A stretch of DNA of 64,000 nucleotides, from positions 16,678,001 through 16,742,000 of the forward strand of contig OX597838.1 of the NCBI GenBank assembly GCA_951406725.2. Reading direction: 5' to 3'. The notes under the pieces are model-generated. The model did not search any database, was not told where the DNA came from, and saw only the letters and a list, made by a program, of their open reading frames with translations. Made by a program: the position numbers and the translations under genes. Of this stretch, positions 21,031 to 55,500 are shown one piece after another (the stretch's first letter is position 1; every line of letters starts with the position of its first letter). Source of the DNA: Octopus vulgaris (Eukaryota).

Positions 21031-21127
21031 CTATATATATATATACATGTATGTATATATATATATATATATATATGTTTAGGCCTTGTGCCAGTAATAA
21101 AGAGTTAACCTCTAGCCGAACAATTAT

Positions 21128-21328
21128 TTTGTGCTGATGAAGAGAAATAACCCAGAAATCGCGATACACAGATATTGTTTTGAGCTGAGTGGGGGTGCTA
21201 GATTCCCTTGTTCGAAAATATAAGGGCACAGATCGGGTCATATAGCCAGCTGGAGACGATGTCTCCTGGGGCTAAATTACAGCAACATTAGTCCTAAACC
21301 AGGACTGCCATGTTATGTTGGCAAACAA
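21128..21328 (+). ncRNA. Hammerhead motif followed by a multi-hairpin structured segment (copy 1, stem II decayed)
   Basis: TTTGTG-CTGATGA(21134-21140)...CCCA-GAAA-TCGCGA-TA-CACAGA; downstream AGGGCACAGA, TAGCCAGCTGGAGACGATGTCTCCTGGGGCTA, AGTCCT/AGGACT hairpin, GCCA/TGGC hairpin. Confidence 0.6.
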
Positions 21329-21658
21329 TCTTTACTAAACAGTGAAAGGGAAAAAAAAACCAAAAAAAAATGTGTTTTGGCTAAATTATCTTTAAAACAG
21401 TGATTAAAACATTCACCTCTTGTCAATTTAGTCACAAGATAGCTTGGCTGGGTTGATAACAGCTGATAGCCTGATTGGTGGTTGTGAAAGAGAATTGAAA
21501 GACATTTATTTAATCTATTGTAAGTTTTGTTTTTCTATTAATCAAAAGCAGAAACTCTCTTCTGAATTTGTCAGGTTTGTCTGCAAATTTAAAACAGAGA
21601 CAGCAGAAACCACGAGGAAAAAAAAAAAGATAAATATTTTACAGCAACTACAACAATC

Positions 21659-21751: not shown

Positions 21752-21838
21752 AACTTTGATGGGTACAGCCCATATGCTATGGAAAGCACTGTCCATTTAA
21801 AATGGAATAAATGTGGTGATAATAATAATAATAATGAT

Positions 21839-22180
21839 AATACCTGTTGTCATAGGTGCCCTGGGAATGATAGCAAAAGGGGCTGATTGCTACCTAACTC
21901 AGATACCAGGAAACCCCAAAATGGCAGAAATTCAAAAGATAGTGCTCATGGGAACTGCTCATATCCTACGCAAAATACCTTCTATGTAATCCCAAGTTTT
22001 AAAACAAACATAATTTTCGAATGGTTCTTTAGGCATTCACTAGTACAACACTTTGTACAAAACCAAATATATGGCACCCTAGGCATAACACCAACATGAA
22101 CTTCCAACTTATTGTCTCTTGAGGTCTCTGGGTGAGACTTGGAGCCAGCTTGTGCAAATGTAAAGCATAAGTCAAACATA
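21839..22180 (+). mobile_element. R4/Dong-clade non-LTR element 3' end flanked by (TAA)n
   Basis: IPVVIGALGMIAKGADCYLTQIPGNPKMAEIQKIVLMGTAHILRK matches the C-terminus of R4/Dong restriction-like endonuclease ORFs; TAA repeats on both sides. Confidence 0.8.
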
Positions 22181-22848: not shown

Positions 22849-23277
22849 GCTTATTGTATACTGTAGTCAGGTGTATTATCGAAGTAAGTCAGGCCAAATT
22901 CATGAATTTAAATTGAAAATAGAGACTTCCAGGAAAACAAGTAAATTATTAAATTTTGGAACAATTTAGAAGTTTCCATGCAATGGCTACCAAATTAAAA
23001 TTTGACACATCGAATCTGAAACAGATTAAGAATAAAGATGATAAAAATTTTTTAAAAATGAAAGAATTTTGTGATAAAACTGTTATTGATGAAGCAATTC
23101 AGAATCCAGGAATTTATATTTCAAAAAAAAAAAAAAAAATGTTTCTTCAGTTATTTTGCATGTTTTAGTCATTGGATTGCGGCCATGCTGGATAACTCAT
23201 CTTCAAGGCTTCTTAGTCAGCCATATCACACCACCTCACCTCAGAACTTTTAGTCTGGTATTTATTTTAGCAGTTTT

Positions 23278-23321
23278 CACACCAGAAAATGTACATGCAA
23301 ATGTAGACATAGATACGCACA

Positions 23322-23365
<44 letters not shown>

Positions 23366-23409
23366 TGTGCGTATCTATGTCTATATTTGCATGTACATTT
23401 TCTGGTGTG
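23278..23409. repeat. 132-bp near-perfect palindrome centred on (TA)n
   Basis: CACACCAGAAAATGTACATGCAAATGTAGACATAGATACGCACAATG-(TA)n-CATTGTGCGTATCTATGTCTATATTTGCATGTACATTTTCTGGTGTG; one mismatch. Confidence 0.95.
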
Positions 23410-23629
23410 GAGCGCAATGGCCTAGTGGTTAGGGCAGCGGACTTGCGGTCGGAGGATCGCGGTTTCGATTCCCAGACCGGGCGTTGTGTGTGTTTATTGA
23501 GCGAAAAAACACCTAAAAGCTCCACGAGGCTCCGGCGGGATGTGGTGATCCCTGCTGTACTCTTTCACCACTCTAAAGGCGGTGCTCCAGCATGGCCGCA
23601 GTCAAATGACTGAAACAAGTACAAAAAAA

Positions 23630-47143: not shown

Positions 47144-47556
47144 AATAATGATCGATTTGTTGCTGATAATAACTTCTTATTAACTTCACAATCTCCATTT
47201 TCTTATTCTTTATATGAATATAAATTTCTTCCTTTATATGAATATAAACTACAGTTTTTATACACACCTATTATTTTAAGGAACTCAGTACCCCACTCCC
47301 AAATATTAGCCATTGAACCAGTACTTCCTTGGATGACACCATCCCTTCATGAGGCTAACATGACCTCTAATTGAATTCTATTATTTGTAATTGCTCAACC
47401 AGTTCATATATAAATACCTGAAATTTATAAAACAAGCCAAGAGGAGACATCTAACTCATTTGACTTAAACTGTTATTGTAGTTGTTCAGAATCAGAGCAG
47501 TGGCCATCATGTTATTTCATATATCAGAGACTACATTTTCAATGTGTCCTTCTAAT

Positions 47557-47760
47557 CGTACGCTGATGACGGGTCAAGACCCAGAAACTGCGGTCTGTGC
47601 GTATCACTTAGGTTGATGAGGGAAGGATGACCTCCCTTTGCAAATACCGACAGGGCACAGAAAGTGTGTCAATAGCCAGCTGGAGGCGATGTTCTCCTGG
47701 GGCTACAAGCTACAGTAACACCCACCCTTAGTGGTTAGCCATATTGAGATGGCAAATATA
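47557..47760 (+). ncRNA. Hammerhead motif followed by a multi-hairpin structured segment (copy 2)
   Basis: CGTACG-CTGATGA(47563-47569)-C-GGGTC AA GACCC-A-GAAA-C TGCG GTC-TGTGCG; GUC triplet ends 47595; downstream TAGCCAGCTGGAG...CTCCTGGGGCTA hairpin shared with 21128-21328. Confidence 0.7.
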
Positions 47761-48094
47761 CCTCACATTGTTGTGCAGTTACTGTTTATACCTCGTTCAG
47801 AGATTTATTACTTCTAATTTTCATTATTAAACAATACAGCAGTATTTCACCAGTCACTATGTTCTGAGTTTAAATTCTGTTGAGGTTGATTTTGCCTTTC
47901 ATCCTTTTAGGGTCGATAAATTAAGAACCAGTGAAAACACTGTCCTCTCCCCACAAATTTGCGCCTCCAGTAGAACGGATTAAAACAATGGTTTTTAACC
48001 CTTTGTTTCCTATTTTACTTGGACATACCCTTCTAGTCATTTGATGCTTAGAAAAATCCTGTTATATTTTTACAATTAGATATTGTTCAGAATA

Positions 48095-49013
48095 TGTAAG
48101 TATTAAAACAGTGACCTTTGAGCTGCGTTTTCATCTTGGAAAAGAGATGGAAGTCCACAGGGGTTAAAAATTGATACCATGTTGTTTTTAGCAAGAAACT
48201 CATCAGTGAGGAGAACTTGATGACAGGGTGCTTTGTCATCATGAAGAATCCAATTCCTTGTGCTCCACATCTCCGGTCGCTTTCACCAAATGTCCTCCCT
48301 CTGATGTTTCAAAACATTACAGTATAACTCTTGATTCATGGTTTGGCCCTGGGGGAATGAATTCTCAATGCACAATACCACATTTCCAAGGATGAGACTC
48401 GTGGTATGTCTTCCAGATCGCTCATCGTCTTCCAGGAATGTTCTTTCACTTTTGAAGCACCCATGCCGTTTGAAACATAGCATATGACCCATTGCCTCAT
48501 CGCTGTAAGCTTGCTGAAACATGCCCAATGTCCCCATAGTAGACTTCCCAAGTTTAACCCTTTCGTTACTGTATTTATTTTGAGATGCTCTGTGTTTCTT
48601 TCAATTACTTTAAATATAATAAAGAATTTAGTAAAATAACTTAGTTATCATTCAGCTAGAGTTAGGAACATAAATTGTGACTAAAGTTTGGTGGAAGATT
48701 TTAATTCAAAACTTATGAAAACAAGACATTTGTACTCAGAGCCAGATCTGGTTTCGGCTGGGTTGGTAACGAAAGAGTTAATGCAAAATTTCAACACTGG
48801 CTCTTTGTTCCTGTCCCTGATAAAAATCACAGACTACAGCACACATGTAATCCCAAAGACAAATTTCACAACTTGCGAAATAAACACAGTGACGTCACTC
48901 GATACACGGCCTCATGAAGGTAACTGCTAGCTCTCCACTGCACACACATCTATGTGCAGCCATCTGTTGGCACGCTACAGAACAAGTCCAGGAACTTTTT
49001 GATGCCACCTCAT
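48095..49013 (-). pseudogene. Internally deleted mariner transposase relic, interrupted by a TTAA MITE
   Basis: QQAYSDEAM...FKSERTFLEDDERSGR (HTH), PQGQTMNQELYCNVLK, WILHDDKAPCH, DFHLFSKMKTQLKG; TIR-like TATGAGGTGGCATCAAAAAGTT ending ~49013. Confidence 0.85.
48554..48781. mobile_element. piggyBac-type MITE with TTAA target duplication
   Basis: TTAA-CCCTTTCGTTAC ... GTAACGAAAGAG-TTAA; inverted homologue at 19171-19400. Confidence 0.85.
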
Positions 49014-51314: not shown

Positions 51315-51550
51315 CTATGACGATTTCATCTGAATCGAAGGAGAAGGGCTTTCTCCGTCTGGATTGTGGATCCGTGGAATAAGCTGCCGGACAAGATAGT
51401 GAAGATGCCGACGACTGCTCAGTTCAAAATCTCTCTTGACTAGAAATGGCCTGAACTCTTTGTATGACCACCCTGCCTGTACATAACTCCCTGTCCCCCT
51501 ACATGGCCTTGCTCTTGCTTTTTCAGCCAATAAAAATTGAATTGAATTGA
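51315..51550 (+). mobile_element. CR1-clade LINE 3' end with (AATTG)n tail
   Basis: RFHLNRRRRAFSVWIVDPWNKLPDKIVKMPTTAQFKISLD; homologous to 30374-30773. Confidence 0.85.
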
Positions 51551-51686
51551 AAAAAAAAAAAATCTTGCCAGTGTCACATAAAAAGCACCCAGTACACTCT
51601 GTAAAGTTGTTGGCATTAGGAAGGGCATCCAGCAATAGAGACTGTGCCAAATCATATGACTGGAGTTTGATGCAGCCCTCCAGCTT

Positions 51687-54600
51687 ATCAGCTCCTATTC
51701 AAATAGCCAAGTCATACCAGCATGGAAAACAGACATTAAATGATGATGATCTGGGAGAAGAGATCAGCTCCTATTCAAATAGCCAAGTCATACCAGCATG
51801 GAAAACAGACGTTAAATGATGATGATCTGGGAGAAGAGATCAGCTCCTATTCAAATAGCCAAGTCATACCAGCATGGAAAACAGACATTAAATGATGATG
51901 ATCTGGGAGAAGAGATCAGCTCCTATTCAAATAGCCAAGTCATACCAGCATGGAAAACAGACATTAAATGATGATGATCTGGGAGAAGAGATCAGCTCCT
52001 ATTCAAATAGCCAAGTCATACCAGCATGGAAAACAGACATTAAATGATGATGATCTGGGAGAAGAGATCAGCTCCTATTCAAACAGCCAAGTCATACCAG
52101 CATGGAAAACAGACATTAAATGATGATGATCTGGGAGAAGAGATCAGCTCCTATTCAAATAGCCAAGTCATACCAGCATGGAAAACAGACGTTAAATGAT
52201 GATGATCTGGGAGAAGAGATCAGCTCCTATTCAAATAGCCAAGTCATACCAGCATGGAAAACAGACATTAAATGATGATGATCTGGGAGAAGAGATCAGC
52301 TCCTATTCAAATAGCCAAGTCATACCAGCATGGAAAACAGACATTAAATGATGATGATCTGGGAGAAGAGATCAGCTCCTATTCAAATAGCCAAGTCATA
52401 CCAGCATGGAAAACAGACGTTAAATGATGATGATCTGGGAGAAGAGATCAGCTCCTATTCAAATAGCCAAGTCATACCAGCATGGAAAACAGACGTTAAA
52501 TGATGATGATCTGGGAGAAGAGATCAGCTCCTATTCAAATAGCCAAGTCATACCAGCATGGAAAACAGACATTAAATGATGATGATCTGGGAGAAGAGAT
52601 CAGCTCCTATTCAAATAGCCAAGTCATACCAGCATGGAAAACAGACATTAAATGATGATGATCTGGGAGAAGAGATCAGCTCCTATTCAAATAGCCAAGT
52701 CATACCAGCATGGAAAACAGACATTAAATGATGATGATCTGGGAGAAGAGATCAGCTCCTATTCAAATAGCCAAGTCATACCAGCATGGAAAACAGACGT
52801 TAAATGATGATGATCTGGGAGAAGAGATCAGCTCCTATTCAAATAGCCAAGTCATACCAGCATGGAAAACAGACGTTAAATGATGATGATCTGGGAGAAG
52901 AGATCAGCTCCTATTCAAATAGCCAAGTCATACCAGCATGGAAAACAGACGTTAAATGATGATGATCTGGGAGAAGAGATCAGCTCCTATTCAAATAGCC
53001 AAGTCATACCAGCATGGAAAACAGACATTAAATGATGATGATCTGGGAGAAGAGATCAGCTCCTATTCAAATAGCCAAGTCATACCAGCATGGAAAACAG
53101 ACATTAAATGATGATGATCTGGGAGAAGAGATCAGCTCCTATTCAAATAGCCAAGTCATACCAGCATGGAAAACAGACGTTAAATGATGATGATCTGGGA
53201 GAAGAGATCAGCTCCTATTCAAATAGCCAAGTTATACCAGCATGGAAAACAGACATTAAATGATGATGATCTGGGAGAAGAGATCAGCTCCTATTCAAAT
53301 AGCCAAGTCATACCAGCATGGAAAACAGACATTAAATGATGATGATCTGGGAGAAGAGATCAGCTCCTATTCAAATAGCCAAGTCATACCAGCATGGAAA
53401 ACAGACATTAAATGATGATGATCTGGGAGAAGAGATCAGCTCCTATTCAAATAGCCAAGTCATACCAGCATGGAAAACAGACATTAAATGATGATGATCT
53501 GGGAGAAGAGATCAGCTCCTATTCAAATAGCCAAGTCATACCAGCATGGAAAACAGACATTAAATGATGATGATCTGGGAGAAGAGATCAGCTCCTATTC
53601 AAATAGCCAAGTCATACCAGCATGGAAAACAGACATTAAATGATGATGATCTGGGAGAAGAGATCAGCTCCTATTCAAATAGCCAAGTCATACCAGCATG
53701 GAAAACAGACATTAAATGATGATGATCTGGGAGAAGAGATCAGCTCCTATTCAAATAGCCAAGTCATACCAGCATGGAAAACAGACGTTAAATGATGATG
53801 ATCTGGGAGAAGAGATCAGCTCCTATTCAAATAGCCAAGTCATACCAGCATGGAAAACAGACATTAAATGATGATGATCTGGGAGAAGAGATCAGCTCCT
53901 ATTCAAATAGCCAAGTCATACCAGCATGGAAAACAGACATTAAATGATGATGATCTGGGAGAAGAGATCAGCTCCTATTCAAATAGCCAAGTCATACCAG
54001 CATGGAAAACAGACGTTAAATGATGATGATCTGGGAGAAGAGATCAGCTCCTATTCAAATAGCCAAGTCATACCAGCATGGAAAACAGACGTTAAATGAT
54101 GATGATCTGGGAGAAGAGATCAGCTCCTATTCAAATAGCCAAGTCATACCAGCATGGAAAACAGACGTTAAATGATGATGATCTGGGAGAAGAGATCAGC
54201 TCCTATTCAAATAGCCAAGTCATACCAGCATGGAAAACAGACATTAAATGATGATGATCTGGGAGAAGAGATCAGCTCCTATTCAAATAGCCAAGTCATA
54301 CCAGCATGGAAAACAGACATTAAATGATGATGATCTGGGAGAAGAGATCAGCTCCTATTCAAATAGCCAAGTCATACCAGCATGGAAAACAGACGTTAAA
54401 TGATGATGATCTGGGAGAAGAGATCAGCTCCTATTCAAATAGCCAAGTCATACCAGCATGGAAAACAGACATTAAATGATGATGATCTGGGAGAAGAGAT
54501 CAGCTCCTATTCAAATAGCCAAGTCATACCAGCATGGAAAACAGACATTAAATGATGATGATCTGGGAGAAGAGATCAGCTCCTATTCAAATAGCCAAGT

Positions 54601-55395
54601 TATACCAGCATGGAAAACAGACATTAAATGATGATGATCTGGGAGAAGAGATCAGCTCCTATTCAAATAGCCAAGTCATACCAGCATGGAAAACAGACAT
54701 TAAATGATGATGATCTGGGAGAAGAGATCAGCTCCTATTCAAATAGCCAAGTCATACCAGCATGGAAAACAGACATTAAATGATGATGATCTGGGAGAAG
54801 AGATCAGCTCCTATTCAAATAGCCAAGTCATACCAGCATGGAAAACAGACATTAAATGATGATGATCTGGGAGAAGAGATCAGCTCCTATTCAAATAGCC
54901 AAGTCATACCAGCATGGAAAACAGACATTAAATGATGATGATCTGGGAGAAGAGATCAGCTCCTATTCAAATAGCCAAGTCATACCAGCATGGAAAACAG
55001 ACATTAAATGATGATGATCTGGGAGAAGAGATCAGCTCCTATTCAAATAGCCAAGTCATACCAGCATGGAAAACAGACATTAAATGATGATGATCTGGGA
55101 GAAGAGATCAGCTCCTATTCAAATAGCCAAGTCATACCAGCATGGAAAACAGACATTAAATGATGATGATCTGGGAGAAGAGATCAGCTCCTATTCAAAT
55201 AGCCAAGTCATACCAGCATGGAAAACAGACATTAAATGATGATGATCTGGGAGAAGAGATCAGCTCCTATTCAAATAGCCAAGTCATACCAGCATGGAAA
55301 ACAGACATTAAATGATGATGATCTGGGAGAAGAGATCAGCTCCTATTCAAATAGCCAAGTCATACCAGCATGGAAAACAGACGTTAAATGATGAT
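51687..55395 (+). repeat. 76-bp tandem satellite, 48 full units plus a diverging 49th
   Basis: Unit ATCAGCTCCTATTCAAATAGCCAAGTCATACCAGCATGGAAAACAGAC(A/G)TTAAATGATGATGATCTGGGAGAAGAG; first unit starts 51687, last starts 55335 (3648 = 48 x 76). Confidence 0.98.
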
Positions 55396-55500
55396 CATGA
55401 TGATGATCTAGGAGAGGAGATATTGCACATGACCAGCATGGAAAACAGACGTTAAATGATGATCATGATGATGATCTAGGAGAGGAGATATTGCACATGA
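55365..55500 (+). repeat. 68-bp two-copy tandem duplication at the distal end of the satellite
   Basis: CCAGCATGGAAAACAGACGTTAAATGATGATCATGATGATGATCTAGGAGAGGAGATATTGCACATGA at 55365 and 55433. Confidence 0.9.

Follow-up and report, generated by a model that had tools for sequence, protein, structure and literature searches.

A dispersed hammerhead repeat of Octopus vulgaris with a U1/U2-like promoter element, Penelope-type insertion scars and Tx1-type LINEs at its putative transcription start

What kind of element are the two diverged hammerhead-bearing segments found in a 64,000-nt stretch of the Octopus vulgaris genome (contig OX597838.1, positions 16,678,001 to 16,742,000 of the forward strand; hereafter, the window)? 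The initial annotation placed them at 47557-47760 and 21128-21328 and read them as a self-cleaving RNA module of ~200 nt, either a retrozyme-like unit or the 5' leader of a retroelement. Our analysis gives good confidence in a wider explanation, in which both segments derive from a non-coding repeat of 352 to 355 nt that combines a covarying hammerhead, five hairpins and a promoter element similar to those of U1 and U2. This repeat is likely to be expressed as an snRNA-type RNA and to have been copied into AT-rich sites by the reverse transcriptase of Penelope-like elements, and it serves as a target for Tx1-type LINEs, which probably borrow its promoter.

The motifs that had been described are all present at their positions in both copies. 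The core CTGATGA is found at 47563-47569 and 21134-21140, and CCCAGAAA at 47580-47587 and 21151-21158. Stem I pairs as claimed (CGTACG/TGTGCG in the 47557 copy, TTTGTG/CACAGA in the 21128 copy), and the TAGCC..GGCTA, variable and GCCA/TGGC hairpins were located in both. The NUH triplet is GUC in the 47557 copy, with a predicted cut after C47595, and AUA in the 21128 copy, with a predicted cut after A21166. The two copies are also clearly related, as their local alignment scores 73, whereas 493 segments drawn at random from the window reach 23 at most. Other points had to be corrected. The boundaries proposed were wrong: the first copy runs further at its 3' end and the second at both ends, homology among the fetched genomic loci goes past the limits on either side, and the size of ~200 nt falls well short of the full unit of 352 to 355 nt. 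AGGGCACAGA is indeed present, but as the 5' arm of a hairpin (P4), and a further hairpin and a long distal stem I had been missed. Stem III exists, but it is not merely a short stem, being an 8-nt self-complementary sequence. Finally, the C/A apposition at the foot of stem II is not peculiar to one copy, since an unpaired foot (C/A and A/A, one pair per copy) is a subfamily-wide trait.

The first copy (47557-47810, + strand) is a 5'-truncated member of family 1 that reaches the longer of the two 3' ends, the one with the tail, lacks the first ~19 nt of the putative transcript and is flanked by an 8-nt target-site duplication (47549-47556 and 47811-47818). Its type I hammerhead (47557-47601) consists of stem I (47557-62/47596-601), the core (47563-69), stem II (47571-73/47580-82, with a 6-nt loop and the unpaired C/A foot), GAAA at 47584-87 and the self-complementary helix III (47587-47594), which differs by one A-to-G change from the exact palindrome of the family and has a self-duplex energy of -9.7 kcal/mol. 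Downstream are hairpins P3 (47620-47636), P4 (47654-47670), P5 (47673-47705, with an internal loop and the highest sequence conservation of the unit), the variable hairpin P6 (47722-47734) and P7 (47738-47753). The short 3' end of the family corresponds to a position ~15 nt further (near 47768), and the optional tail of ~45 nt between the two 3' ends occupies 47769-47810.

The second copy (21108-21336, + strand) belongs to family 2 and runs from the putative transcription start (+1 = 21108) to the short 3' end. It has a type I hammerhead (21128-21172; core 21134-40, palindromic helix III 21158-65) within a long interrupted stem I (21108-21190), whose distal part, beyond the proximal stem, is formed by 21108-21127 and 21173-21190. 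Hairpins P3 (21191-207), P4 (21224-39), P5 (21243-74), P6 (21290-306) and P7 (21307-22) follow it. Immediately upstream, 21077-21107 (+) contains some 30 nt from the 3' tail of a Tx1-type LINE (family C). A (TA)n tract precedes them, and they abut +1 of the unit, an arrangement also seen in other loci of this LINE family. Folding of the whole sequence gave a weak z score for one window copy (-1.03) and a strong one for the other (-3.44). Rfam returned no hammerhead match to either window copy at E values up to 10, and its scan of the whole window gave only matches of the low-complexity type among the 150 of 206 listed. Elsewhere in the window, we observed a homogeneous tandem array (51535-55500), in which ~50 repeats of 76 nt are 99-100% alike, and a near-perfect 120-nt palindrome centred on (TA)n (23274-23414).

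Both window copies are truncated on the 5' side, and they represent two subfamilies of one dispersed repeat. Searching the genome (2.8 Gb, 227 contigs) at first look gave 3123 candidates for family 1 and 3051 for family 2, which are lower bounds and not copy numbers (40 were scored per search), the best matches being 93-97% identical to the query copy. We fetched the best 30 loci per family (60 in total), and all counts reported here come from the top 30 matches of each search. Two natural tandems (L008 and L041) give unit periods of ~355 and 352 nt, respectively. The unit is non-coding, with longest ATG frames of 51 and 28 aa and GC contents of 0.41 and 0.38 in the two families. It agrees with non-LTR retrozymes in being non-coding, in a size within 150-450 bp, in a GC content below 50% and in its type I hammerhead. 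Profile searches over the fetched loci recovered 160 distinct near-full units, which form 43 clusters at 90% identity, with further subfamilies among them.

The pairing claimed for the two window copies is kept across this diversity. Our alignment has 28 rows, comprising the 2 window copies and 26 of the 43 cluster representatives, after 17 chimeric or internally deleted sequences or inversion junctions were dropped. In it, 89.4% of the 823 cells of 30 named pairs are paired, compared with 26-45% in slid controls. Both sides have changed in 20 of the 30 pairs across the 28 diverse copies, although the subfamilies are related and these events are not independent. Compensatory changes on both sides affect all 6 pairs of helix I and all 3 of helix II. 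Segment folds add P3, P4 and the long distal stem I reaching the putative +1 (z below -1.5 in 19-24 of the 28 rows per segment), which completes the set of five hairpins, P3 to P7, downstream of the hammerhead.

The catalytic core (CUGANGA/GAAA/NUH) was parsed in 136 of the 160 distinct units, with U at position 4 in 126. Of these 136 units, 98 have C-G as the tertiary 3/8 pair, 17 have U-A and 17 have U-G (132 together). The palindrome of helix III is exact in 89 of the 136, with at least 6 different sequences. Where it is unpaired, the foot of stem II consists of C/A, A/A, A/G or U/U, by subfamily. The G10.1-C11.1 position is paired in 27 of 34 U3 copies, an association confounded by lineage, and among C3-G8 copies the foot is unpaired in 93 of 98, with a G-C pair one step inward, which is likewise confounded by lineage. 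Helix II has 3-4 bp with a 6-nt loop and the long, interrupted helix I extends to +1, as opposed to the 7-8 bp and 4-5 bp, respectively, of a min-HHR, which places the ribozyme nearer to the canonical type I than to minimal hammerheads. The covarying stems and the conserved core, including the swap from C3-G8 to U3-A8, support the initial idea of a retrozyme-like self-cleaving module, with cleavage itself as a prediction.

The palindromic helix III predicts that cleavage would be carried out by two paired ribozymes, in which case a monomer would be the wrong cleavage test. Among 30 copies found with the 3' half of the unit as query, 20 continue across the predicted cut position, 2 stop no more than 4 nt away from it, and 5' ends do not pile up there. 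This suggests that the template was uncut or circular, and the genomic copies carry no trace of cleavage. Contigs from three sequencing runs, guessed to be of RNA, contain mostly the 3' half of the unit, the same as a DNA run, with no informative joint.

The ends and flanks of the copies bear on the other half of the initial proposal, the 5' leader of a retroelement. Across the 60 loci, 3' ends form two groups ~50 nt apart, one near +205 and one at +250-260 relative to the core, 5' ends vary from -3 to -367, and the flanks are AT-rich and mutually unrelated. These two fixed 3' positions and unrelated flanks, together with the target duplications that units possess on their own and the lack of a shared ORF downstream, speak against a leader. 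In its specific form, the ribozyme would lead an adjoining R4/Dong-type LINE, as HDV-like ribozymes do for R2, since ~500 nt past the 3' end of the 21128 copy, in the same orientation, there is a C-terminal fragment like that of a LINE. None of the remaining 29 loci of family 2 shares that flank, an (AAT)n tract surrounds the fragment, and nothing similar follows the 47557 copy, so the link is refuted for the loci examined and we give it practically no chance. The fragment itself (21837-21986, +) comprises 50 codons that resemble the C terminus of restriction-endonuclease LINEs, is independent of the hammerhead unit and is presumably R4/Dong. A decayed transposase fragment, which we take to be mariner-like, lies at 48257-48600 (-). 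Pfam, PDB and Atlas gave no support for either label.

How the units were spread can be read from their junctions. An inverted partial copy is present on the 5' side in 27 of the 60 loci and on the 3' side in none, and the tail is found on one end only in all 22 classifiable inverted loci (5 of the 27 being unclassified). Target duplications of at least 8 nt flank 16 of the 53 loci without a LINE junction, compared with 0.37 in shuffles. Copies longer than one unit (19/60) run head to tail into the 3' part of another unit and never into coding sequence, and two ribozymes in tandem occur in 2 of the 60, numbers that describe the fetched loci. A combination of 5' truncation, partial tandem, inverted 5' copy and one-ended tail is the pattern given for Penelope in the text available from PMC8557442. 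According to the accessible portion of PMC11167929, a lizard Penelope-like element has two internal reverse-transcription start sites, to which the two 3' ends of the unit correspond. The same portion reports a purified Penelope-like system that could do without cleavage. Of 9 dimers of frog retrozymes, 8 are described as uncleaved in the available part of bioRxiv 10.64898/2026.07.22.740005. Elements with a GIY-YIG domain and an RT are present in the octopus genome (6136 candidates), many of them with open frames of 781 aa.

Autonomous Penelope-like copies show the same scars and have a hammerhead that is built in the same way; one of them (L103) combines an inverted 5' piece with such a ribozyme. 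Moreover, most truncated Penelope insertions keep a single terminal repeat, as far as the available text of bioRxiv 10.64898/2026.07.22.740005 describes them. The units could thus be solo pseudo-LTRs, the 5'-truncated ends of an autonomous Penelope-like element. We find this quite improbable, as the extended copies enter another unit head to tail instead of coding sequence, none of the 60 loci has a tblastn match to four Penelope proteins of this genome, and 51 aa is the longest ATG frame across the tandem. Our preferred reading, a non-autonomous repeat copied by a Penelope-like protein, takes its partner from the scars only, because no autonomous element sharing the unit was found among the GIY-YIG loci examined (30 loci plus 10 extended, of the 6136 candidates, none with the unit sequence as its own end). 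The family-1 piece found 1.3 kb past the ORF of L103 lies beyond the (TA)n end of that element and was taken as a neighbour.

Several of these Penelope-like loci deserve a description of their own. In L103 (2321-5483), the inverted 5' piece is perfect over 766 bp, and the 3' end contains a hammerhead with a palindromic helix III and a U/U foot of stem II. L096, L097 and L098 (e.g., L097:1744-5006) belong to a young, abundant family in which the frame for RT and GIY-YIG (781 aa) overlaps a preceding frame of 330-380 aa. The 3' region of this family has repeated CCAAT and CRE-like motifs and a TATA box, and no hammerhead was found on its sense strand. On the opposite strand, L064:3580-5940 contains a Penelope-like frame with a DKT motif, which we assume to be Naiad-like.

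The second question is how the repeat is transcribed. In this genome, the motif ATCAGTG is found 59 nt upstream of U2 and 57-58 nt upstream of U1. In family 1 as in family 2 of the repeat, it precedes a fixed A by 59 nt; a third family has it at -58, and its spacing to the putative start is 57-62 in 29 units that contain a LINE. None of the 15 U6 upstream regions examined has the motif. To judge from this arrangement, RNA polymerase II would start at the fixed A downstream of ATCAGTG. The promoter is present in 22 of the 60 retro-copies and absent in both window copies. Where present, it is preceded by the 3' part of another unit and followed by the ribozyme. As it lies upstream of +1 and is nonetheless included in retro-copies, their template was probably a read-through transcript or a circle. 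All three families also have a TATA-like sequence ~30 nt upstream of +1, and a T5 run lies 253-263 nt past the core, near the long 3' end and before the next promoter. Both features would suit a U6-type repeat transcribed by RNA polymerase III (PSE plus TATA, ending at the T run), with the long 3' end as the end of the RNA and everything else unchanged. We regard this as unlikely, since ATCAGTG is shared with U1 and U2 and not with the 15 U6 regions examined, U1 and U2 are also AT-rich near -30, family 2 contains an internal T4, and promoter-bearing copies would need read-through beyond the T run. A possible 3' box was noticed by eye near the long 3' end. As a separate observation, tandem variant U6 genes at G000:C1:139423726-139428422 have an upstream region unlike that of other U6 loci, and many other U6 matches look like retrocopies.

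The polymerase II start that we favour is also the position where LINEs are found. Three of the 30 family-1 loci are units split by a LINE of 5.3-5.5 kb, and one family-2 locus is split by a 1.8-kb relative. The LINE codes for an ORF1 with a zinc knuckle (zf-CCHC, below the Pfam cut-off) and an ORF2 with APE, RT and zinc finger (Pfam), and its relatives, named by sequence matches, include YTX2 of Polyodon at 37%. The 1.8-kb insert (G000:C16:28350253-28352042) is an ORF1-only Tx1 derivative with a target duplication, some relatives of which keep pieces of ORF2. We made reciprocal searches with LINE-only queries and took the top 30 matches of each, query loci included. For family A (best 30 of 861), 27 3' ends are followed by the unit and 3 by its first 14 nt and another LINE (by reading). 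For family B (best 30 of 632), 20 are followed by the unit, 3 by the unit start and a LINE, 5 by the 5' end of U2, whose identity was confirmed by Rfam, and 2 by other sequence. For family C (best 30 of 213), 22 are flanked by the unit (BLAST or profile). Thus, where more than 20% of flanks in one target denotes target specificity, the values are 30/30 (A), 28/30 (B, units and U2 together) and 22/30 (C) of 3' flanks. The 5' ends of family A (best 30 of 190) come after the unit promoter and +1 to +14 in 29 cases and after another LINE in 1. Those of family C (best 30 of 99, by reading) come after the unit promoter in 21, after another LINE in 4 and after a promoterless unit in 2-3, the remaining 2 not being 5' ends.

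Among 20 insertions with both ends available, 17 duplicate +1 to +14 of their own unit subfamily with at most one mismatch, 2 show more change and 1 has no duplication. As the duplications involve at least four different target sequences, the insertions are independent. This arrangement, with the LINE inside the unit and +1 to +14 of the unit on both sides, largely refutes a relationship in the opposite direction, in which the unit would be a SINE mobilised by the adjoining Tx1 LINEs. The frequent physical association with Tx1 ends and the precedent of crocodilian SINEU, as given in the accessible part of PMC4494074, would favour it, but the units do not have the Tx1 tail at their ends, and the AT-rich, unrelated sites and the Penelope-type inversions and tails do not fit either, all of which leaves this reading very improbable.

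With the unit as the target of the LINEs, the copies inserted in U2 become informative. In four of them, the 14-mer of U2 is followed by a second 14-mer that matches +1 to +14 of a unit subfamily at 13 of 14 positions. Such a leader is the trace expected if the donor LINE was transcribed from a unit promoter, although the four may derive from one inherited event. Downstream of the LINE, U2 is intact from nucleotide 1, a gene without its promoter. The promoter is kept in 29 of 29 LINE-bearing units versus 15 of 19 that merely contain the site, and in 11 of 12 versus 8 of 17 in a second comparison (Fisher p ~0.02 each), in small samples biased to top matches and with 2-3 insertions in promoterless units. 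The LINE targets share little past their first four bases. A tentative scheme in three layers, possible but doubtful at present, would be that a ribozyme circle with a U2-type promoter in its 3' half, spread by Penelope, seeds thousands of snRNA starts, and that SNAPc, not sequence alone, steers Tx1 LINEs to +14 of units and U2. If true, SNAPc steering would be the polymerase II snRNA counterpart of the retroelements that target tRNA genes.

Other Tx1 insertions were also recorded. Clusters of U2 with Tx1 insertions at the 5' end, some in tandem, lie at G000:C3:20780001-20840000 (L166-L171) and G000:C23:43306001-43316000 (L172). Two Tx1 3' ends (L158 and L164) are at neither unit nor U2 and have no Rfam match, and may mark other snRNA-type genes or repeats. 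Distant Tx1 relatives with 27-31% identity, on the metagenome contigs L264, L268, L270 and L272, are inserted inside U1 (nt 31-36) or U2 (nt 36). A first Rfam hint that placed them at position 1 of U2 or U1 was dropped, as the junctions show internal sites.

These observations can be arranged into a model. Transcription by polymerase II would begin at the A located 58-59 nt past ATCAGTG, and the template for copying would be a multimer that arose by read-through, or a circle derived from such a multimer. Two ribozymes would pair via helix III and cut as a dimer, so that only tandem transcripts would release unit-length RNA and a lone copy such as that at 47557 would cut poorly. A GIY-YIG Penelope-like protein might bind the hairpins P4-P7 and start cDNA internally at either 3' site. 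Tx1 LINEs inserted at +14 would rely on the host promoter for their transcription, with the target gene promoterless downstream of them. Whether or not each step holds, the movement and transcription of retrozymes, so far argued mainly from co-occurrence and trees, are here recorded in junctions. The conserved P4-P7 hairpins and the two fixed 3' ends provide a concrete RNA substrate for tests of recognition by Penelope-like RTs. A LINE target made of the first 14 nt of a ribozyme retro-repeat or of U2 is a natural test of guidance by promoter complexes, which bears on tools for site-specific integration.

Compared with known systems, the repeat is best read as a non-autonomous, Penelope-mobilised non-LTR retrozyme, which is a known kind. 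The initial annotation had overstated the novelty of the module, as animal retrozymes and their link to Penelope are already in print, whereas the promoter evidence and the LINE targeting are new. The literature searched showed no study of cephalopod retrozymes, nor of a LINE that has ribozyme repeats or the U2 5' end as its target (Repbase, Dfam and subscription papers, including a 2004 Tx1 survey, lay outside that scope and may contain such families), and the main text of an octopus repeat annotation (PMC13282606) mentions no ribozyme. As described in the available text of PMC7229834 and bioRxiv 10.64898/2026.07.22.740005, animal non-LTR retrozymes have a type I hammerhead in a non-coding unit, as here (GC 38-41%), of 350-390 bp in mussels, and a dependence on Penelope has been proposed for them. 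They form tandem arrays, while the octopus units are mostly dispersed, 5'-truncated and inverted, and their Penelope mobilisation is read from insertion scars, of which none is reported in the retrozyme text consulted from these two sources; nor does that text cover cephalopods or LINEs that target the unit.

According to the part of PMC4209133 available, the hammerheads of Penelope contain an additional base behind A9, form helix III from a palindrome, include the U3-A8 variant and show weak cleavage that depends on dimers, and the unit shares the first three of these features with those of Penelope pseudo-LTRs. With Penelope-like elements, it also has the scars and the AT-rich or (TA)n targets in common (PMC11167929 and PMC8557442, in the portions accessible). 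Unlike Penelope pseudo-LTRs as far as they are described there, the unit has no ORF, its tail is ~45-55 nt against 30-40, and its promoter is of the snRNA type. This last feature has a parallel in newt satellite 2 (Coats, Zhang and Epstein 1994, as cited in the available part of PMC2220036), a repeat whose unit includes both a hammerhead of the dimer type and a promoter of the snRNA type. The newt satellite is tandem and amphibian, whereas the octopus repeat is dispersed in a genome of the mollusc type.

Finally, Tx1 families that target transposons, microsatellites and snRNA genes are known (PMC4494074), and Keno and Utopia insert before nucleotide 39 of U2 (PMC4640811), as far as the accessible text of both sources goes. 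From the same text, the octopus LINEs resemble Keno, Tx1L, Tx1-Mar and Utopia in the zinc knuckle of ORF1, the APE-RT-zinc finger order of ORF2 and a strict target in a multicopy RNA gene or transposon, and they resemble target-specific Tx1 LINEs in their tandem insertion at the same site and their target-derived 5' leaders. They differ from Keno and Utopia in their target, the ribozyme retro-repeat and the 5' end of U2, where +1 to +14 are duplicated, instead of nucleotide 39 of U2. What this locus adds to these systems is the junction evidence for Penelope mobilisation, an snRNA promoter that travels with the repeat and, above all, LINEs that target the start site.
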